A stretch of DNA of 64,000 bases from the NCBI GenBank assembly GCA_965204735.1, contig OZ242008.1, positions 2,400,001-2,464,000 of the forward strand, read 5' to 3'. Source of the stretch: Longimicrobiales bacterium. GTDB taxonomy: Bacteria; Gemmatimonadota; Gemmatimonadetes; Longimicrobiales; Gaopeijiaceae. Made by a program: the position numbers and the translations under genes. Below, piece by piece: positions 48,013 through 59,908 of the stretch (the first letter of the stretch is position 1; each line of letters begins with the position of its first letter). The notes beneath the pieces were generated by a model, which worked only from the letters and a program-made list of their open reading frames with translations, was not told the origin of the DNA and searched no databases.

Positions 48013-51000
48013 TCAGCCGGCGGCGGCGCCCGCCTGGTCTTGCGGCTGCTCCAGGCGGACGCCGACGATCGACGACACGCCCGGCTCCTCCATCGTCACG
48101 CCGTATATCCAGTCCGCCGCCTCGATGGTGCGGGGGTTGTGGGTGATCACCACGAACTGGGTGCGGGCCTTGAAGCCCTGGAGGAGGCGGATGAAGCGGC
48201 CGATGTTGGACTCGTCCAGGGGCGCGTCCACTTCGTCCAGCACGCACAAGGGGCTGGGCTTGACCAAGTAGATGCCGAAGAGGAGGGAAAGGGCGGTGAG
48301 GGCCCTCTCGCCGCCGGAGAGCAGGTCGATCCGCTGGGTGCGCTTGCCCCGCGGGGCCGCATGGATCTCCACCGGGGACTCGAGGGGGTTCTCCGGGTCC
48401 GCCAGCCAAAGGCTCGCCTCGCCGCCGCTGAAGAGGTGCCGGAAGGTGTCCTGGAAGTTCTTTCGGATCGCCTCGAAGCTGGTCATGAAGAGCTCCGTGG
48501 CGGTGGCGTTGATCCGTCGGATCGCCGCGCGGAGGTCGTCCCTGGCTGCCGCCAGGTCCTCCTGCTGCTGGGAGAGGAACTCCAGGCGAGCACTCTCTTC
48601 GGCGTGCTCCTCGACCGCCAGCATGTTCACCGGACCGATCTTGGCCAAGCGCTCGACGATCTCGGCAAGCTCGGCGCGCAGGTCGTCCGCGGCGCCCTCC
48701 ACCGGCTCCGCTTCCTCGAGGAGCGCTTCCAGCGGGCGGCCCCACTCCCCTTCCAGCCGCTCCCGGACCCGCTCCGCCCGGTTGCGGGCGTCCTGGCGCT
48801 CCAGCTCCAGCCGGTGCCCCGCGTCGGCGGCCTCCCGCTCGGCCTGGCGGATCGTCCGCACCCGGCGCTCGGCCTCCATGACGGCCTCCGACGCCTCGCG
48901 CAGCGCTTCGTCGCGCTCGGCCAGCACGCCCTTGGCCTGGTCGCGTTCCCGAAAGAGCCGCTCCGCCCGCTCCCCGCCCTGCCGGCTGGACCGGCGCGCC
49001 GCCTCCAGCTCGTCGGCCAGCCGCGCCGACTCGCGGCCGAGCTCGGCCGTCCCCGAGGCGGCCTGCTCCATCGCCTGGGAAACGTCGGACACCCGGCCCC
49101 GCAGACGCTCGACCTGGCTCTCCAGGCGCGCAGCCCGGATCGCCGCCTCCGACTCGGCGTCGCGGGCCTGCTCCCACTCGGCGTCCACGGCGACGAGGGC
49201 GGTCCGGCGCTCGTCCACGCGCACCGCGAGATCGCTCTCTTCCTGGACGAGGCGGGCGCCTTCCGCCTCCGCCTCGCGCTCCCGGGCGGCGGCCTTCTCC
49301 CGGGCCGCCTTGGTCCCGGCCAGCTGACGGGCGAGCTCCTCCTGACGGCGGTCCAGGCGACGGTGGCGGTCGGTGTGGGCCGCGGCTTCCGAGTCGGCGG
49401 CGCGGGCCTCGTCCCGGGCCTCGAGGAGGCGCTCCGAAGCGGTGTCGGTCTCGGACTCGCAGCGGGCGTGGTCCTCCTCGAGGGCCGCCCGCGCCGACCG
49501 CGCATCCTCCAGCTCCCGACGCGCCGCCTCCCGGTCGGTCTCCAGCGACTCGATCCGATCTCGGCGCTCAAGGGCACCCGCGTCGCCGGCGGCCCGGCCG
49601 GGAAGCAGATGGACGGTGCCGAGGGAGTCGGCCCACCTGCGGGCGGCGACGGTCCCTTCCGCGACGCCGGACACGTCCGCGCCGGACACGTCCACGCCGC
49701 CCAGCAGCGCCCGAACCCAGGGGGCGCCCTCGCCGTAGGCCGAGACCCCGGCGGGAAGCGCGCCCCGCGGCCGAGGGGCTGCGTCCAGGGGCAGAAGCGC
49801 AAGAGGGGCCTGGGCCACGGCGCCGGAGCAGTACCACTCCTCCAGCCGTTCGACGGCGCCCCCGTTCCGCACCACCAGAGCCGAGCCGAAGCGGCCCAGG
49901 GCGTCGTCCACGACCCGCGCGGAAGCGCCGGCGACCCGCACGAAGTCGGGCAACGCCCCGGCGACCAGCTCGGGGAAGGCCCCCCGGGCGGCCGCGGCCA
50001 GCGCTTCCGTTCCCTCGCCGGCCTCCACCGCCCGCCGAAGGGCGGCGAGCTCGGCGTCCAGGGCGGAAAGCCCGGCTTCCGCGTTCCGCTCCCGCTCCCG
50101 CGCCCGGCGCAGCTCTTCCCGGAGCAGCTCCAGCCGCCGCCGACTGCCGTCGAACTCCCGGGAGGCCTTGGTCGCCTTGGCCGCCGCCTCGGTCGTGCGC
50201 ACCGAGAAGAGGTCGCCCTGGCTCCGAAGCTCCTTCAAGGCCCCCGCGCCCTCCCGGGCGTCGCGGGCCAGCCGCTCGAGTCGCCGCCCCAGCTCTTCCT
50301 CCTGGATGCGCGCCGCCGTCCGGTTCCCCTCCGCCCGGGCGATCCGCGTGGAGACGGCGCGGACGCGCTCCTCCAGCTCGCGAAGCTCGCGCCGGGCGGC
50401 GTCGAGTCGCCCGCGAACCTGGGCCACCTTGTTGCTGCGATCCTTTAGGTCGGACTGCACAACTTCAAGCGCAGATTGACTTTGCGCCTGTTCTTCCGAG
50501 TATCCGGCCAGCTCGTCCTGGGAACGCACGCGGAGCTTGGCCAGCCGCTCCTGCTCCGTCGCGACCTGCTCCGCCCGGCGTTCGGCGGCGGCGATCCGCT
50601 CCCGGGCCACCGCCACCTCCGTCTCCACGCCCGCCAGCTCGGTCCGCACGGCGTCGAACCGTCCGGCGGCCTCCACTCGCCCCTTCTCCGAGTCGATCTG
50701 CGCCAGTCGAGCCTTCTCCAGGTCGGCCTCGGCCGCTCCCAGGCGGGCCGCAACCCCCGCGCCCTCCTCGCGTCCGCTCTCGAGCAGCCCGTCCAGCTCG
50801 GCCAAGCGCGCGTCGAGAAGCTCCAAGTCGATCCTCACCACGGCCGCCTCGACGCCCAGGCGCCGGGCGCGCAGCTCCTGCCACCGCTGGGCCTTCCCCT
50901 TCTGGCGGGCCAACGAGCGCACCTTGGTGCGGACCTCGGCGATCACGTCCTCGACCCGCTGAAGGTCCACCTCGGAGGTCTCCAGCCGGCGCAGGGCCGC

Positions 51001-51525
51001 GCGACGCCGGTCCTTGTACTTCCCGATTCCCGCCGCCTCCTCGAAGAGGGAGCGGCGCTCGTCGGTGCGCTCCGAGAGGATCGCGTCGATCATCTTGATC
51101 TCGATCACCGCGTAGGCGTTGGCGCCGAGCCCCGTGTCCCGGCAGAGGTCGACGATGTCGCGCAGGCGGCAGGCGGTCCGGTTGAGGGTGTAGTCGCTTC
51201 CCCCGTCCCGGTAGACGGTCCGCCCGATCTCCACTTCCTCGAAGGGGGTGGGCAGCACGCCGTCCTCGTTGGAGACGGCCATGGCGACGGAGGCCCGGTT
51301 CACCGGCTTGCGGGACGCGGCGCCCTGGAAGATCACCTCCTCCATCTTCGCTCCCCGGATGGCGGAGGGGCGCTGCTCTCCCAGCACCCAGCGGATGGCG
51401 TCGCCGATGTTGGACTTGCCGCAGCCGTTGGGTCCCACCACGGCGGTGATCCCGTCGTGGAACTCGATGCGGGTGGAGTCGGGGAAGGACTTGAAGCCGT
51501 GGACGCGGAGGGAACGCAGCTTCAT
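48013..51525 (-). CDS. smc: Chromosome segregation protein SMC
   Basis: GFKSF, GPNGCGKSN, coiled coils, LSGGE, LDEVDAPLD. Confidence 0.97.
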   Translation of the reverse strand: MKLRSLRVHGFKSFPDSTRIEFHDGITAVVGPNGCGKSNIGDAIRWVLGEQRPSAIRGAKMEEVIFQGAASRKPVNRASVAMAVSNEDGVLPTPFEEVEIGRTVYRDGGSDYTLNRTACRLRDIVDLCRDTGLGANAYAVIEIKMIDAILSERTDERRSLFEEAAGIGKYKDRRRAALRRLETSEVDLQRVEDVIAEVRTKVRSLARQKGKAQRWQELRARRLGVEAAVVRIDLELLDARLAELDGLLESGREEGAGVAARLGAAEADLEKARLAQIDSEKGRVEAAGRFDAVRTELAGVETEVAVARERIAAAERRAEQVATEQERLAKLRVRSQDELAGYSEEQAQSQSALEVVQSDLKDRSNKVAQVRGRLDAARRELRELEERVRAVSTRIARAEGNRTAARIQEEELGRRLERLARDAREGAGALKELRSQGDLFSVRTTEAAAKATKASREFDGSRRRLELLREELRRARERERNAEAGLSALDAELAALRRAVEAGEGTEALAAAARGAFPELVAGALPDFVRVAGASARVVDDALGRFGSALVVRNGGAVERLEEWYCSGAVAQAPLALLPLDAAPRPRGALPAGVSAYGEGAPWVRALLGGVDVSGADVSGVAEGTVAARRWADSLGTVHLLPGRAAGDAGALERRDRIESLETDREAARRELEDARSARAALEEDHARCESETDTASERLLEARDEARAADSEAAAHTDRHRRLDRRQEELARQLAGTKAAREKAAAREREAEAEGARLVQEESDLAVRVDERRTALVAVDAEWEQARDAESEAAIRAARLESQVERLRGRVSDVSQAMEQAASGTAELGRESARLADELEAARRSSRQGGERAERLFRERDQAKGVLAERDEALREASEAVMEAERRVRTIRQAEREAADAGHRLELERQDARNRAERVRERLEGEWGRPLEALLEEAEPVEGAADDLRAELAEIVERLAKIGPVNMLAVEEHAEESARLEFLSQQQEDLAAARDDLRAAIRRINATATELFMTSFEAIRKNFQDTFRHLFSGGEASLWLADPENPLESPVEIHAAPRGKRTQRIDLLSGGERALTALSLLFGIYLVKPSPLCVLDEVDAPLDESNIGRFIRLLQGFKARTQFVVITHNPRTIEAADWIYGVTMEEPGVSSIVGVRLEQPQDQAGAAAG

Positions 51526-51956
51526 GGGGCCGCTTGGCCGCCGGGCGGCCGTGGACCAGGGACGGGAGCCTCCGAGTGGTCGGCGTCGGCGGAAGGCGGG
51601 GGCTCGTCCATGGGCAGCGCCGTGGCGTCGCCCCAGAGGGCCTCCAGCCTGTAGAACTCCCGCACCGGCGCGTGGAAGACGTGGACCACGTAGTCGATGT
51701 AGTCGAGGAGGATCCACCGCCCGTCGTCCTTGCCTTCCACATGGTCGGGACGGACGCCGGCCGCCTTCGCGGAGTCGAGCACGTGGTCGGCGATGGCCTT
51801 TACCTGCACGTCGGAACGACCGCTGGCGATCACGAAGAAGTCGGTGGCCGACGAGAGTTCGCGCAAGTCCAGGACCACGACCTCTTCCGCCTTCCTGTCG
51901 AGGGCGCAGCGAACCGCGGCCCGGACCTCGGCGGGCACGCGTTCGGAGGCGGTCAA
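51522..51956 (-). CDS. rsfS: Ribosome silencing factor
   Basis: DRKAE.V.VLD, DFFVIASG, WILLDY.DYVVHVF, FYRLEALW. Confidence 0.94.
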   Translation of the reverse strand: MTASERVPAEVRAAVRCALDRKAEEVVVLDLRELSSATDFFVIASGRSDVQVKAIADHVLDSAKAAGVRPDHVEGKDDGRWILLDYIDYVVHVFHAPVREFYRLEALWGDATALPMDEPPPSADADHSEAPVPGPRPPGGQAAP

Positions 51957-52408
51957 ACCTGCTCGGCCTCCACGACGACGCGCACTTCCACTTCCACCTC
52001 CGAGCCCAGCCGGAGGGCGACGCGGTACTCGCCCACGGCCTTGATCGGTTCGTCCAGGGCCACGTGCCGCGGATCCACCTCGAAGTCGGTTCCGGACCGC
52101 GTCGCCTCTTCGGCGATCTCCCGCCGGCCGACGGAGCCGAAGAGCCTGCCTTCCTCGCTGGCCCGGGCTTGGACGGCGAACGTCTTCCCCTCCAGCTGGG
52201 AGGCGCGGCGCCGCGCCTCGAGGTAGTCCCGGCGCGCCCGCTCGTCCTGCCGGCGGCGCTCTTCCTCGATCATCTTGACGGCTGCTTCGGTGGCCCGGTA
52301 GGCCAGCCCCTTCGGGATGAGGTAGTTGCGGGCGTACCCGGGCTTCACGTTCACGACCTGGCCGGTCGAGCCCAGGTGGTCCACGTCCTCGCGCAGGATG
52401 AGTCTCAT
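51953..52408 (-). CDS. rplI: 50S ribosomal protein L9
   Basis: VKPGYARNYLIP, GRLFGSV. Confidence 0.97.
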   Translation of the reverse strand: MRLILREDVDHLGSTGQVVNVKPGYARNYLIPKGLAYRATEAAVKMIEEERRRQDERARRDYLEARRRASQLEGKTFAVQARASEEGRLFGSVGRREIAEEATRSGTDFEVDPRHVALDEPIKAVGEYRVALRLGSEVEVEVRVVVEAEQV

Positions 52409-52409
52409 G

Positions 52410-53249
52410 TCAGGCCCCGTGATCCTTCATGTACGGGATCAGCGCCAGGTATCGGGCCCGCTTGATCGCCGCGCCCAGGCGGCGCTGGAAGCGGGCGGTC
52501 ACCTTGGTGGTGCGCTTCGGGAGGATCCTGCCCTGCTCCGTCAGGAAGCGGGACAAGGTGGTCACGTCCTTGTAGTTGAGGAGGACGATGGGCGGCCCTT
52601 CGTGGCGACGGCGACGGCCTCGGGCGCCGGCGAACTCGGGAGGGCCGGAGCGGGGCGGCGGCGCCTCGGCGGCCTCTTCCGCCCCGTCCGATTCGCCGGC
52701 TTGCTCGCCTTCGGAGCCGCCCGCGTCCCCACGGGCGGCGGCGGGAGTCCCCTGGGCGGCGGCCGCGGCCTGGCGGACGACGGCATCGCCTTCGTCGGCG
52801 CTCTCCGCCTCCTGGCGGGCGCTGCGGGCCTCGTCGGCGTGGTCGCTCGGGGCGTCCTTGGCGGGCGCTCCCGCAGGCGCCTGTCCCTCGGCTGCTTCGG
52901 GGCCCCGGTCCCCGCCTTCGTCCTGCGCGACCGTCGGAGGATCCGCCAGGACGGAAGCCCCCGACGTGGGCTGGCCCTCGTTCGCGACGATCAGGTGCCT
53001 CACCGTCTCCTCGTCCAGGCGCAGCAGCCGCTCCAGCTCGGGAAGAGAGGTCGGGTCGGCTTCCACGTGGACGACGGCGTAGTAGGCGGTCGTCCTCTTG
53101 CCGATGGGGTAGGCCAGCTGGCGGAGGCCCCAGTGGTCCACGGCGGAGACCTCGCCGTCCAGCGCGGCGTGGAAGGTCTCCAGCTTGGCGTCCACGGCGC
53201 TCCGCTCCAGGCCGGCGTCCAGAATGTAGACGATCTCGTATGCTCGCAT
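52410..53249 (-). CDS. rpsF-rpsR: Fused 30S ribosomal proteins bS6-linker-bS18
   Basis: aa 1-92 bS6 (MRAYEIVYIL, WGLRQLAYPI, VRHLIV); aa ~212-279 bS18 (NYKDV..L.RFLTEQGRILPKR.T, QRRL..AIKRARYLALIPY); one frame, no stop. Confidence 0.92.
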   Translation of the reverse strand: MRAYEIVYILDAGLERSAVDAKLETFHAALDGEVSAVDHWGLRQLAYPIGKRTTAYYAVVHVEADPTSLPELERLLRLDEETVRHLIVANEGQPTSGASVLADPPTVAQDEGGDRGPEAAEGQAPAGAPAKDAPSDHADEARSARQEAESADEGDAVVRQAAAAAQGTPAAARGDAGGSEGEQAGESDGAEEAAEAPPPRSGPPEFAGARGRRRRHEGPPIVLLNYKDVTTLSRFLTEQGRILPKRTTKVTARFQRRLGAAIKRARYLALIPYMKDHGA

Positions 53250-53366
53250 TTTCGCGGGAAGCTCCCTCGGACCGCGGTGGGTTGGCGGGCTCCGCCGTTC
53301 CCGGACGGAGCGGGCAAAGCTGCTGGCGAAAGATAGCGCGGACGAAGCCGGGAGCGGAAGGGGCGG

Positions 53367-55226
53367 TGTCGTACCAATTTAGAAATGTCCGGTCTTACCA
53401 AGATAGAAATGTCCTCTTTCGGGCGATGTTCGGCGGGAGTCGAACTCGTGCCCGGGAGAGGAGCGAATGGAGTTGAGCTTGAAGGAGCGGGACCGGATCT
53501 CGGTGTTGAGGCAGGTGAGCGAAGGCGTGCTGGCGGCGGCCGACGGCGCGGCGCGCTTCGGGGTGACGGAGCGTCACTTCCGGCGCGTGCGCCGCCGGTT
53601 CGAGGCGGCGGGCGACGAGGTGGTCGTGCACGGGCTCCGGGGTCGGAGGTCGAACCGGTCGCTGCCGTCGGAGACGCGGGAGCAGGTGCTGGTCATGGCC
53701 AGGGACCCCGACTACGCCGACTTCGGCGCCACGTTTCTGGCGGAGCACGTCGAGCGGGAGCTGGGCGTGCGCGTCAGCGCGGAGACGCTGCGGGCATGGC
53801 GGAAGGGCGCGGGCTTGTGGCAGCGCAAGCGCAAGCGGGCGAAGCACCGGCGCCGACGGCCGCGTCGCGCCGCGCGGGGCGAGCTGCTCCAGTGGGACAG
53901 CTCGGTTCACGCCTGGCTTGAAGACCGGGGGCCGCCCGACCTCGTGCTGATCGCGCTGCACGACGACGCGACGAGCGGGTTCATGCACGGTCGCTTCGTC
54001 GAGCGCGACACGGGCGCCGCGAATCGGCGAGCGATCGTCGAGTGCCTCGAACGCCACGGCCGTCCGAGGGCGGTGTACGTGGACCACGCGGGCCACTTCG
54101 GGCAGCGCCTCGGCCCGGAGGGCAAGCGGACCCGGACGATCATCGGCACGGCGCTGGAGAAGCTGGGCGTCGAGGTGGTCCTGGCGAACTCGCCGCAGGC
54201 GAAGGGCCGGGTCGAGCGGACGTTCGGCACGGCGCAGGACCGGCTGGTCAAAGAGATGCGCTTGGCGCGAGTCACCACGCTCGAGGCGGCGAACCGCTAC
54301 TTGGAGGAGCGGTGGGTTCCGTTCTGGAACGAACGCTTCACGGTGGCGCCGGCCGATCCCCTCGACGCCCATCGCCCGCTGCCTCAGGACATCGATCTGG
54401 AAGCCCTCTTCGCCGAGACGGACACGCGGGTCGTGGCCCGCGACTTCACCGTGCGCTTCGAGAACCGCTTCTGGCAGGTCACGGCCCGCGACGCCGAGGC
54501 GGCCGGCGTCGCGCCGGGCTCCCCCGTCGTCGTCGAACGGCGCCTCTCGGGCGAGCTGCGCTTCCGGCATCGCGGCTGCTACCTGACGCCCAAGGCCTTG
54601 GGGGCGGTCCGGTCGGCGACGCCCAAGCCGGCGCCGGCGCCCGCGACGGCCAAGCCCAGGCCCAAGCCGCCGAAGCCGGGAAGGGATCACCCGTGGCGCA
54701 AGCACTTCAGCGCCAGCGTGGCCCAGGCCGTGGCCAAGCGGGAACACCGCGCCGCCCACTCCAACGGGACCGGTCCCGAGCGGTGCAGGACCTCGTCCTG
54801 AGCCTGCAGGCGGGGACGGCAGCTCGCACTCCCCTTCCCGCAAAGGTCGGACGCGACCGCAGTGTCGGCATCCGTGCCTCCGAGGCTTGCCGGCGCTGCG
54901 CAGGTCGCTCGGCGCACCACGACCGTCCGAGCTGGCAGGCTCAGTGCGAACTGCGAGCCATCGGGGCAGCAGTGTCCGGACCCGTCCGCGTTGGCGTCCA
55001 CCCGGCCAGAGCTTGGCCACGGCGACGACCTCGACTCGCCCGGCCGCCACTGGCCTTGAAGCGCCTGGAACAGGGCGCCCGGCGCCGTCCAGCCCAGGCT
55101 TGCTGGATCCGCGTGTCCTGCGCCCGACACCTGGCCCCCGGCCTCAGGAAGAACCCACCGTCCACACCATCAGGGGGGACATTTCTACTTTGGCCAACTA
55201 CCGGACATTTCTACTTTGGCTTGACA
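53367..55226 (+). mobile_element. Complete IS, IS1202-family-like (formerly ISNCY), 1860 bp
   Basis: TGTC..GACA ends, each with two TAGAAATGTCC blocks; 17-bp direct repeat gggagcggaaggggcgg at 53350-53366 and 55227-55243. Confidence 0.93.
53467..54801 (+). CDS. DDE transposase
   Basis: N-terminal HTH, HGLRGRRSNR, GELLQWDSS.H.W, DDAT, YVD, SPQAKGRVER.FGT.QDRL. Confidence 0.94.
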   Translation: MELSLKERDRISVLRQVSEGVLAAADGAARFGVTERHFRRVRRRFEAAGDEVVVHGLRGRRSNRSLPSETREQVLVMARDPDYADFGATFLAEHVERELGVRVSAETLRAWRKGAGLWQRKRKRAKHRRRRPRRAARGELLQWDSSVHAWLEDRGPPDLVLIALHDDATSGFMHGRFVERDTGAANRRAIVECLERHGRPRAVYVDHAGHFGQRLGPEGKRTRTIIGTALEKLGVEVVLANSPQAKGRVERTFGTAQDRLVKEMRLARVTTLEAANRYLEERWVPFWNERFTVAPADPLDAHRPLPQDIDLEALFAETDTRVVARDFTVRFENRFWQVTARDAEAAGVAPGSPVVVERRLSGELRFRHRGCYLTPKALGAVRSATPKPAPAPATAKPRPKPPKPGRDHPWRKHFSASVAQAVAKREHRAAHSNGTGPERCRTSS

Positions 55227-55380
55227 GGGAGCGGAAGGGGCGGGCTTGCTTCTGGCGCAGGAGGCCCGCCTTTTGTACGATAGGGCCTTGCGGGCGGTCC
55301 TCCGGGGTCGGCCGCGCGACCGTTGCGCCGAGCCGGGGAGAGGTCGGCGGCGGCCCACGAAACGAAAGGGCGCGTTCCCT

Positions 55381-55414
55381 TAAATGGACTTCACATCCTA
55401 AATGGACTTCACAT
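55381..55414. repeat. Tandem duplication (period 18) of a start-codon region
   Basis: taaatggacttcacat-cc-taaatggacttcacat. Confidence 0.92.
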
Positions 55415-56484
55415 TCGCCGGCGCTTCGCGAAGCGACACCTTCGGCTGGTTCGCCGAGGGGTTGCGGAGGGTGATGGAATCGCAGGGCCATCGCTACATC
55501 GACGAAGCGTCCGACGCCAAGCTCGTCGTCAACTTCTTTCCCAGGAACGAGCCTCGGCCGGTGCGCCGCCACGCCCAGTCGGTCTTCGTGTGCGCCGTCA
55601 CCGAGTTTCCCGACCCCTTCACGGACCCGATCCCGCAAGGCTACCCCACGCTGATCCGGGCGCTGGCGAACTTGGCCGTGGGACTGGTGCCGGGCCCCCA
55701 CGGCGACCCGGACGTCCACTTCGTCACTTTGGAGCAGGGGCACTACATCGTCTCGGGCAACGCCAACCGCGCCCACTACTTCGACAAGGTGTACGACCGG
55801 ATTCATCCCCTGGCGTCGTCCACCCTGGTCATCGAGAACTTCTTCGAGCCCGACCTGCCCAGGGAGCTGTGGGAGGGCGACGAGATCACCGAGTCGATCT
55901 ACCGGGCCGGCAAGAAGCTGGACGGCCTGGACCTGCTGCCGGCCCCCTTCCCCATGGACAAGCTCCTGCCGGAGAGGGACTTCCGTCACGTGAAGCGGCT
56001 CTTCGGGATCGGCGGCCTCTCGTACGGCAACGTGTCGGCGCGCTTCGACGACGACTGGTTCTGGATGAGCGCCAGCGGGGTGGACAAGTCCAACCTGCGC
56101 GAGATCGGCGCCCACATCCTGATGGTGAAGGACTACGACCCGGAGCGGAACGGGATGCGGGTCGGCCACCCCCCCGGCGTGGAGCCCCGGCGGGTGTCGG
56201 TGGACGCGATCGAGCATTGGATGATCTACCGGGAGCACCCCACGGTCGGGGCGATCCTTCACGTCCACGGCTGGATGGACGGCATCCCGTCCACCGAGTT
56301 CAACTTCCCCTGCGGGACCCGGGAGCTGGGCCAGGCGGTGGCGGACCTGGTGCGGGACGCCGACGACCCCGCCCGCTGCGTGGTCGGACTCAAGAACCAC
56401 GGCCTGACGATCACGGGAACAAGCCTGGACGAGATCTTCGAGCGGATCGACGGGCAGATCCTGCCGACGGTGCCGATGGCGTAG
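55402..56484 (+). CDS. Class II aldolase/adducin-family protein with N-terminal extension
   Basis: GNVSAR, MSASGVDK, SVDAIEH..IY, AILHVH, LKNHGL. Confidence 0.85.
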   Translation: MDFTFAGASRSDTFGWFAEGLRRVMESQGHRYIDEASDAKLVVNFFPRNEPRPVRRHAQSVFVCAVTEFPDPFTDPIPQGYPTLIRALANLAVGLVPGPHGDPDVHFVTLEQGHYIVSGNANRAHYFDKVYDRIHPLASSTLVIENFFEPDLPRELWEGDEITESIYRAGKKLDGLDLLPAPFPMDKLLPERDFRHVKRLFGIGGLSYGNVSARFDDDWFWMSASGVDKSNLREIGAHILMVKDYDPERNGMRVGHPPGVEPRRVSVDAIEHWMIYREHPTVGAILHVHGWMDGIPSTEFNFPCGTRELGQAVADLVRDADDPARCVVGLKNHGLTITGTSLDEIFERIDGQILPTVPMA

Positions 56485-56585: not shown

Positions 56586-57844
56586 TCAGGCGGTCGCGGC
56601 TCCCGGCTCCATGACGGCCGCCTGCACCGCCGGGACCAGCGCCAAGTACCTGCCGTAGGCCCAGCGGGCGTCTTCCAGCTTCAGCCGCTCGGTGTTGGTG
56701 TGGGCGTGGCGCTCCAGGCCGGGGGCGAAGCCGATGGTGGGAATGCCGCGCACGCCGCAGGTCCAGCCGCCGTCGGTGGCGAAGGTCCAGGGGCGGACTC
56801 GGGCCGGGCGACTGCTCCCGCCCGCCTGCGCGCTTCGCGTTCCCACGGCGCGAGCCGCGGCCTGCACCACCGGATGGGCCGGGTCCATGAGGAAGCCTGG
56901 GCTCAGTATGCTCCGTTCCTCCTCCATGCCGGTGTACGCCCGCTGCCGCTCGGTGGCGAGGCGGAACTCCGCTGCGCCCCACTCCCCGACCGCGCCCGCT
57001 TCTCCGGCGGCGTCCAGCCTGGGCTGCACCGCCTCGCGCACTCGCGCCAGCAGGCTCTCCTTCGTGTCCGACGGCAGGATGCGCCAGTCCAGGGTCACGG
57101 TGACCCGGTCCGGGATCACGTTGAGGCTGGCGGGGGTCGCGTGGATTCCGGTGGCTGCCACCGAGGCCGAGCCCAGAACCGGGTCCTCGTCCTGGCGCCG
57201 GGCCAAGTCGCCCACGCCGGCCAGAACCGCCGGGAGGGCGTCCAGGGCGTTCCTGGCCCGCTCGGGCGCCGAGGCGTGGCCTGCCAGGCCCCGCACCGTG
57301 ATCTCGATCTCCGCCCTGCCCCGGTGGCCGATCGCGATGTCGCCGTTGGTGGATTCGCCGATGATCACCGCAGCCGGCCGCACTCCACCGTCGCGGCGGG
57401 TCAGGTGGTCCATGCCCCAGCCGCCGCGCTCCTCGAAGACGGGGTGCGCCACGATCACGTCGCCGGCCGCCTTGCCCTTCATGGCCGCGCCCACATGGGT
57501 CTGGAGCGCCAGAGGCCCCTTGATGTCCATGGCGCCCCGTCCGTGAAGGCAGCCGTCGGCGATCACGCCGTCGAAGGGCGGGTGCTCCCACTCGTCCAGG
57601 TCGCCGGCCGACACCATGTCCAGGTGGGCGCTGAGCATGACCGACGGCCCGTCGCCGCCCTTGATCAAGCCCACCACGCTGCCCAGCTCGTCGGTCCACA
57701 CCTCGTCGTAGCCCAGCGCCTCCATCTCGGCCACGACGCGCCGCACCAGCTCTCTCTCCTCGCCGGGAAGCGACGGGATGCGGATCAGGTCCTGGGCGAA
57801 GGCGACGGCCGAGTCGAAGGAGGGGGCGCCGCGACGCGCGCGCC

Positions 57845-57848
<4 letters not shown>
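56586..57848 (-). CDS. M20-family metallopeptidase/deacylase
   Basis: [28 protein letters not shown]. Confidence 0.9.

Positions 57849-59908
<2,060 letters not shown>

Follow-up and report, generated by a model that had tools for sequence, protein, structure and literature searches.

Ribosomal proteins bS6 and bS18 are a textbook heterodimer, and in the canonical arrangement they are the separate products of two genes. In a preliminary description of the window (the whole stretch of 64,000 nucleotides analysed here, from contig OZ242008.1 of a Longimicrobiales bacterium), both were said to lie in one 279-codon reading frame. Is this fusion real, how did it come about, and does its product act as one chain or as two proteins cut from a common precursor?

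One gene encodes bS6 and bS18

On the minus strand, an ATG at 53249 and a TGA at 52412–52410 delimit 279 stop-free codons. Pfam places PF01250 at residues 4–88 of the product (78.9 bits; cut-off, 27) and PF01084 at residues 224–271 (69.1 bits; cut-off, 21), and the NCBIfam equivalog cut-offs are passed for both bS6 (TIGR00166, 65.3 bits against 42.9, over residues 1–90) and bS18 (TIGR00165, 72.3 bits against 38.75). The gene, its parts and its downstream neighbour are as follows.

52410–53249, minus strand: fused rpsF-rpsR gene (bS6-linker-bS18, 279 aa), recognized by its open frame, both domains, their sole copies and contig support
52980–53249, minus strand: bS6 domain, residues 1–90, from PF01250 and TIGR00166
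52944–52979, minus strand: conserved bS6 tail EGQPTSGASVLA, residues 91–102, from family alignments
52644–52943, minus strand: acidic Ala/Gly/Glu/Pro/Asp linker, residues 103–202, without conservation and predicted to be disordered, from composition and modelling
52593–52643, minus strand: family-specific motif PPEFAGARGRRRRHEGP, residues 203–219, where the ancestral bS18 start and CxxC knuckle stood
52410–52592, minus strand: zinc-free bS18 core, residues 220–279, plus the stop codon, from PF01084
51953–52408, minus strand: rplI (bL9), starting one base past the stop of the fused gene, with rsfS next

The outline given in the preliminary description is thus correct: one frame holds bS6, a low-complexity linker and a bS18 devoid of cysteine (the entire 279-aa protein has none), neither ssb nor priB lies between the two domains, and rplI follows immediately. 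Its figure of about 120 aa for the linker was fair, the variable linker measuring around 109 aa and the two domain HMMs lying 133 aa apart. The lack of in-frame ATG and GTG codons that it reported extends to TTG throughout residues 89–226, where the near-cognate codons listed are only CTG at L101, ACG at 95 and 106, and ATC at 221. The KRAR RNA-recognition residues of bS18 (K263, R264, A265 and R266) are invariant in the family alignment, and over 53 aa the bS18 core has 68% identity with one of the zinc type from a sister family.

The source genome (G000; one contig, 4.14 Mb, 98% complete) yields one S6 match and one S18 match, both inside the fused frame; a second rpsR, which had been proposed as something to look for, is absent from it. 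The canonical pair of genes with separate products is therefore replaced here by one frame carrying the sole copies. Downstream, the operon extends over 48013–52408 on the minus strand, with rplI, rsfS (51522–51956) and an SMC-like ORF, and the 1234 aa listed for the last of these probably start around 64 codons too early. In two genomes of the same genus (G001, locus L033, and G002, locus L036) the stop of the fused gene overlaps the start of rplI; G000 and G003 have a one-base gap.

Support for the frame across the linker

The open frame by itself is weak evidence, because the G+C content is 69% and the remaining two minus-strand frames across the linker are likewise stop-free. Read support, which had been named as the check to make, was sought in four runs from four studies (X1, X3, X4 and X7). 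Single contigs bridge the linker and span the ORF in frame in three of them (X1, X3 and X7), and in X4 the ORF is covered only by overlapping pieces. The X1 contig is identical to the window, X1 being possibly the source sample; the contigs from X3, a sponge metagenome according to its record, and from X7 differ from the window by 15–16 substitutions and one in-frame gap of 3 nt. Two database proteins, P0003 and P0004, are 279 aa each and 95–96% identical to the fused protein. The evidence for a real fusion is, however, its conservation throughout the family, the gene being fused in all 55 family genomes read (G000 included). High G+C content, which keeps other frames open too, and the garbled look of seven of the 49 two-domain proteins in a representative library (they were dropped) would suit an artefact of assembly or sequencing that had deleted a stop codon, but against in-frame contigs from different studies, two 279-aa database proteins and 55 fused genomes its probability is practically nil, and we take it as refuted.

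Distribution and probable single origin of the fusion

The fused proteins of these 55 genomes are 206–345 aa long, with a median of 222, and that of G000 is the sixth longest; 67 family genomes were seen in all, the 12 that were not read having S18 frames of 225–953 aa. In the two sister families rpsF and rpsR are unfused in 16 of 16 genomes (15 of 15 without the unpublished G025). The two genes there lie −4 to +4 nt apart wherever the script chose a start (15 of the 16), and bS6 ends in an acidic Asp/Glu run with the rpsR start within a few bases. A draw of 300 genomes from the phylum included 253 outside the family, and an S18 frame was seen for 252 of these (G191 was left out). Twenty-three of the 252 frames are at least 159 aa long, and the 22 that were read (G213 was left out) are all unfused, so that no fusion occurs among the 251 assessed genomes of this draw from outside the family.

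The fused proteins form one clade in the S18 tree (support 100/99) and in a quick S6 tree (SH-aLRT 97), both of which are short and midpoint-rooted and sample 30 of the fused proteins along with 31 unfused loci. The S18 tree is built on 62 columns, its bootstrap is not settled and it lacks a root from outside, so that a foreign donor of the bS18 may formally be considered. The fusion is a real, family-defining trait of one Longimicrobiales family.

Compared with this family, unfused Gemmatimonadota loci have the same gene order without ssb, the same leader apart from one extra hairpin, a related bS6 tail (GEPT/GQPT) and, in the sister family, a bS18 core of the identity given above, but their rpsF and rpsR are separate abutting genes, their bS18 is mostly of the zinc type, and the PPxF motif is missing. 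With its one origin, the contrast between the fused family and its unfused sisters is a natural experiment on the fusion of ribosomal protein genes, the loss of zinc and the change of a leader RNA along with its ligand, and the fusion is a clean marker for the family. Each of the 120 homologs listed, of 1518 found, has both Pfam domains, and the named ones among those 120, from Gemmatimonadota, are labelled S18 only or S6 only. Such names leave an annotation gap in which rpsF or rpsR will seem absent.

Other S6–S18 fusions

The preliminary description implied that such a fusion is rare, and this was not borne out. A profile search of 1.84 billion representatives (50% identity) listed 150 proteins, 55 of which have both domains: six are of the family type, seven, incomplete or garbled, were set aside, and 42 are well-formed fusions of other types. 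The proposed search for the PF01250–PF01084 architecture thus returned both a family fused throughout and 42 further representatives among the matches listed, and unrelated S6–S18 fusions are common in metagenome proteins. These 42 share with the Longimicrobiales proteins the order S6 then S18 and the lack, in every one of them, of a CxxC ahead of the bS18 core. They differ in being shorter (155–231 aa, with a gap of 8–86 aa as against 133 here) and in lacking the PPx[FY] motif. All ten that were checked pass both Pfam cut-offs, and some of the 42 may be errors, since seven of those ten are single-member clusters. Only one carries a taxon name (Gammaproteobacteria, MDA9832596.1), and the 42 count representatives, not origins.

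S6–S18 fusion is therefore recurrent across bacteria, and the Longimicrobiales case is not a first. In the literature searched it is apparently undescribed: no title or abstract describing one was found, subscription journals and supplements lying outside the coverage. What sets the Longimicrobiales protein apart is a remodelled junction and leader, and no new kind of system is revealed. According to a table of C+ and C− proteins (PMC3087516), many of the lineages behind these fusions may already have been zinc-free when the fusion took place, so the link between fusion and zinc loss is only suggestive.

The junction: motif and zinc ligands

The bS18 core is preceded by a motif, PPx[FY]xGxxGRRRRxEGP, that is near-invariant in the family. 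Both prolines, the aromatic residue and one Arg are found in 55 of 55 proteins and each of two Gly residues in 54. Because the codons of the 55 genes vary freely at synonymous positions, to saturation, and the residues are invariant, the motif is kept at the protein level.

A zinc-binding (C+) bS18 has CxxC together with C-x-x-H. All 17 unfused bS18 proteins compared carry CxxC and C-x-R-H; the fused ones carry neither, and no Cys occurs in the linker or the bS18 part of any of the 55. Zinc loss needs no fusion, as two loci of the phylum (L061 and L067) encode a bS18 that is zinc-free yet unfused. Counting back from NYK, in an alignment made by eye, the RRRR of the motif corresponds to the basic start of the ancestral bS18 minus its CxxC.

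How the junction arose may be read from unfused loci, 27 of 43 of which have at least four Gly or Arg in the six codons ahead of the rpsR start, in the rpsR frame, a count inflated by high G+C content and by the choice of loci with long open frames. Such richness follows from Asp/Glu codons, which yield Gly and Arg when read out of frame. The GGRG of the motif resembles Asp/Glu codons read in this way, which suggests a frameshift in the acidic bS6 tail as the origin of the fusion; the motif codons of the family hold no codon relic of a frameshift.

A family-wide purge of zinc was considered and rejected, because eight of 15 fused-family genomes checked (G021, G024, G013, G019, G006, G288, G012 and G014) keep a 61-aa uS14 with four Cys; six have the long one-Cys type of uS14, and one was not parsed. 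In G000 uS14, bL31 and bL33 are all of zinc-free types. Its spc operon (1173024–1173045) lacks uS14, in place of which a 101-aa zinc-free type stands alone at G000:C1:4089493–4089798; the long type is also found outside spc in G001, G003, G008, G101, G195 and G279. At G000:C1:1081664–1082511, rpmG-rpmB and rpmE form one divergent cluster in which bL33 and bL31 are Cys-free and bL28 is without a CxxC pair, as though zinc-free forms had been substituted.

The linker and other acidic tails

Residues 93–200 contain 30 Ala, 14 Gly, 13 Glu, 11 Pro and 10 Asp and have a net charge of −16. The Ala/Glu/Pro composition noted at the outset is therefore right for this protein, but as a general trait it does not hold: the expansion is present in only part of the family. 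In the first 25 family genomes the linker varies from 34 to 124 aa, and short linkers are rich in Asp/Glu. Most likely, the linker derives from the acidic bS6 tail of the unfused ancestor.

Comparable acidic low-complexity runs occur in 33 proteins of a crude gene call of G000. They include what we take, from their sequences, to be bS16 (285 aa with a 203-aa acidic run; G000:C1:2971981–2972838), uL4 (262 aa with repeated APAPEEA units in an acidic Ala/Glu/Pro tail; G000:C1:1167465–1168253) and RpoA (388 aa with a long acidic Ala/Glu/Pro tail; G000:C1:1180252–1181418). Candidatus Palauibacter irciniicola (L048, around 1682–2670) has an unfused bS6 whose 254 aa include an Ala/Glu/Pro tail of 160 aa. 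Because of these similar tails, the Ala/Glu/Pro expansion is regarded as a local feature, distinct from the fusion itself. In the Palauibacter locus the TAG of bS6 is followed directly, and in frame, by the ATG of rpsR; it is a single readthrough or substitution short of a fusion.

In G000 no tie could be made between RimK and the lost free C-terminus of bS6: the sole RimK-family match above cut-off is immediately followed by an ArgC/LysY-like ORF and is presumably LysX/ArgX.

The rpsF leader

A conserved leader lies upstream of the fused gene.

53262–53314, minus strand: rpsF leader of the S6S18CBM type, from a pattern match across loci

It consists of a CCC:GGG stem that closes on the Shine-Dalgarno (SD), a GCUCCG:CGGAGC hairpin and an extra CCG:CGG hairpin, with an unpaired CCG at 53270–53268 ahead of the SD (CCG or CCA in the matched loci). 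In PMC3854524, S6S18CBM is defined by a hairpin, a bulge, an SD in the closing stem and CCR just before the SD. The present leader has the hairpin and bulge, a stem whose 3' strand contains the SD, and the CCR ahead of that SD, and differs in that, in the fused family, part of the bulge makes an extra small hairpin. The pattern was derived from these same sequences, and the loci counted are kin that are not independent. It fits 57 of the 59 fused loci and 18 of the 35 unfused ones; among those that fit, the inner pair of the SD stem is C-G in 56 of 57 fused but U-A in 14 of 18 unfused, and 54 of the 57 fused loci, but none of the 18 unfused, have the extra hairpin. The main hairpin, too, shows two-sided changes between fused and unfused loci. 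The G000 leader alone folds no better than shuffled sequences (z −0.92), and an Rfam scan of 51000–56000 gave no match at E up to 1. In one fused-family genome (G117, L073) the conserved leader could not be recognized within the 90 nt upstream.

A leader that binds S6:S18 functions in E. coli, according to Babina 2015 (PMC4647458), and autoregulation by the fused protein via its own leader is likely. In Matelska 2013 (PMC3854524), the source of the definition, direct adjacency of rpsF and rpsR correlates with absence of the leader motif. This lineage, which has kept the leader, is an exception to that rule.

Structure models and the single-chain reading

An AlphaFold model of a short family member (G005; 207 aa, 58 sequences) has a mean pLDDT of 82.7 and a pTM of 0.74, with low confidence only at residues 113–117 and 121–142, the motif included. 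The protein of G000 itself, with 20 close sequences, gave a poor model (pLDDT 51.5, pTM 0.35), and for this reason the pairing of the two domains is argued from its relative. The pTM of the G005 model would imply that both domains are placed together, and we infer that bS6 and bS18 pair within the molecule as in the normal heterodimer. In both models bS6 has the E-H-E-E-H-E order of its split beta-alpha-beta fold, and the linker has a pLDDT below 50 over most of its length. The G005 bS6 part superposes on solved bS6 chains with an rmsd of 1.3–2.5 A (top 15 Foldseek matches; 1.3 A for 8cwo_F). Its pLDDT is about 90 over residues 91–100, and strands are modelled at 103–104 and 149–151, so that a strand in the conserved bS6 tail probably pairs with one ahead of the bS18 core. 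No PDB chain among the best 60 of 88 matched sequences, and no solved chain among the 50 Foldseek matches shown, holds both domains. The protein agrees with the canonical heterodimer (1G1X, 4YBB and 7K00) in its domain scores, bS6 fold, KRAR residues and place before rplI, but is one chain where the heterodimer has two.

The explanation that we prefer, and regard as probable taken as a whole, is a single uncleaved chain whose bS6 and bS18 would pair with each other and which would bind the platform of the 16S rRNA as well as the leader of its own mRNA, the acidic linker forming a disordered loop on the outside. Of the readings first proposed, the covalent heterodimer with its unstructured loop is the best supported, only the linker region being disordered in the G005 model; the cleaved polyprotein has won no positive support, and the implied rarity has fallen. 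The fusion would have arisen once, in the family ancestor, from abutting rpsF and rpsR, the acidic bS6 tail becoming the linker, probably by a frameshift or stop loss at the junction, and the zinc ligands of bS18 would have been lost on the same branch. The basic and aromatic N-terminus of bS18, which in other bacteria contacts the SD duplex (as stated in the review PMC4611024), would survive as the PPxF-GGRG-RRRR motif and probably touch RNA near the SD helix, a role made uncertain by the low confidence of the motif itself in the G005 model. The benefit would probably lie in a fixed 1:1 stoichiometry and in capture of bS18 by bS6 during synthesis, and the length of the linker would be nearly neutral. 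A single-chain S6:S18 with a loop of about 35 to more than 150 residues would mean that the platform tolerates a large acidic appendage.

A more ambitious proposal, which we consider doubtful, is that fusion to bS6 is a recurrent, built-in chaperone for bS18. The acidic linker would shield PPxF-GGRG-RRRR until RNA displaces it, and the zinc knuckle would be dispensable, as the lack of CxxC in all 55 family proteins and all 42 other fusions suggests; motif and leader hairpin would be a co-evolved, family-specific protein–RNA switch, either where the SD docks or in autoregulation.

The product might instead be a polyprotein cut at or near PPx[FY], freeing an acidic-tailed bS6 and a bS18 that starts with S/A-GGRGRRRR, near the ancestral state. 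The proline pair and aromatic residue are invariant directly after an unconserved linker, the motif segment is unstructured in the G005 model, a cut there would restore ends like those of unfused relatives, and a protease might recognize a conserved aromatic-Ser/Ala-Gly sequence placed in a flexible linker. The protease Prp cuts bL27 at Phe-Ala, which the PPx[FY] site resembles. However, Prp (PF04327) was found in none of 41 genomes (a control was positive in three of 14), bL27 of G000 has no N-terminal extension, and the motif is found in no other ORF of G000. Other S6–S18 fusions have gaps down to 8–15 aa and no motif, so that cleavage is not required for the architecture. Cleavage is on balance an unlikely outcome.

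Still less probable is an internal start from which bS18 would additionally be made, the long frame being only partly used as a fusion. Many relatives do have an ATG or GTG at the variable motif position or in the early linker, and Met occupies that position in nine of 55 proteins. It is His in 25 of 55, though, and no start is conserved; the gene of G000 lacks the three start codons between residues 89 and 226, as described above, and in none of the 55 does a stop codon end bS6 by itself.

Equally slight is the chance that motif and linker play the part taken in Bacteroidota by bS6, bS18 and bS21, sequestering the anti-SD tail and so altering translation starts. In Flavobacterium the site on the platform that serves this purpose is the one where the junction lies (PMC7797042), and in both cases the platform carries changes particular to the lineage at the C-terminus of bS6 and at bS18. 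The motif is rich in Arg and has an aromatic residue, and bS21 and a canonical anti-SD are present. Unlike Bacteroidota, however, the fused family makes undiminished use of the SD. In crude self-trained gene calls of three fused and only two unfused genomes, SD-like 4-mers precede ATG in 88 of 246, 40 of 84 and 28 of 89 genes (31–48%) in the fused and 26 of 99 and 45 of 91 (26% and 49%) in the unfused, with 7–14% in control windows. G000 itself has SD-like words before 36–44% of sampled ATG genes, against 9–11% in the control, and the rpsF leader itself uses an SD. A genome-wide lack of SD use of the Bacteroidota type was accordingly rejected, such words being as frequent in fused as in unfused genomes.

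The region upstream of the rpsF leader

A scan of 53200–53500 for sigma-70 promoters found none; a possible −10 box for the rpsF operon is a TATCTT hexamer at 53330–53335. Outside the fusion, around 120 nt upstream of the rpsF start and 35 nt beyond this hexamer, lies a mobile element.

53368–55193, plus strand: insertion sequence of about 1.8 kb, with inverted arms at 53374–53390 and 55177–55193

It contains a transposase-like ORF of 444 aa (53467–54801), its HTH matches being below the Pfam cut-offs and the name a putative one. Twelve near-full-length copies, this one counted, are present in G000 at 99–100% identity, together with several internally deleted ones. The contigs from X3, X4 and X7 also end at 53366, beside the element. 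Beyond it, on the plus strand, 55402–56484 encode a protein of 360 aa whose N-terminal 200 aa are unassigned and whose C-terminal part holds a class II aldolase/adducin domain (PF00596, residues 202–289); at 56586–57860 follows an ORF that we take to be an M20-like peptidase.
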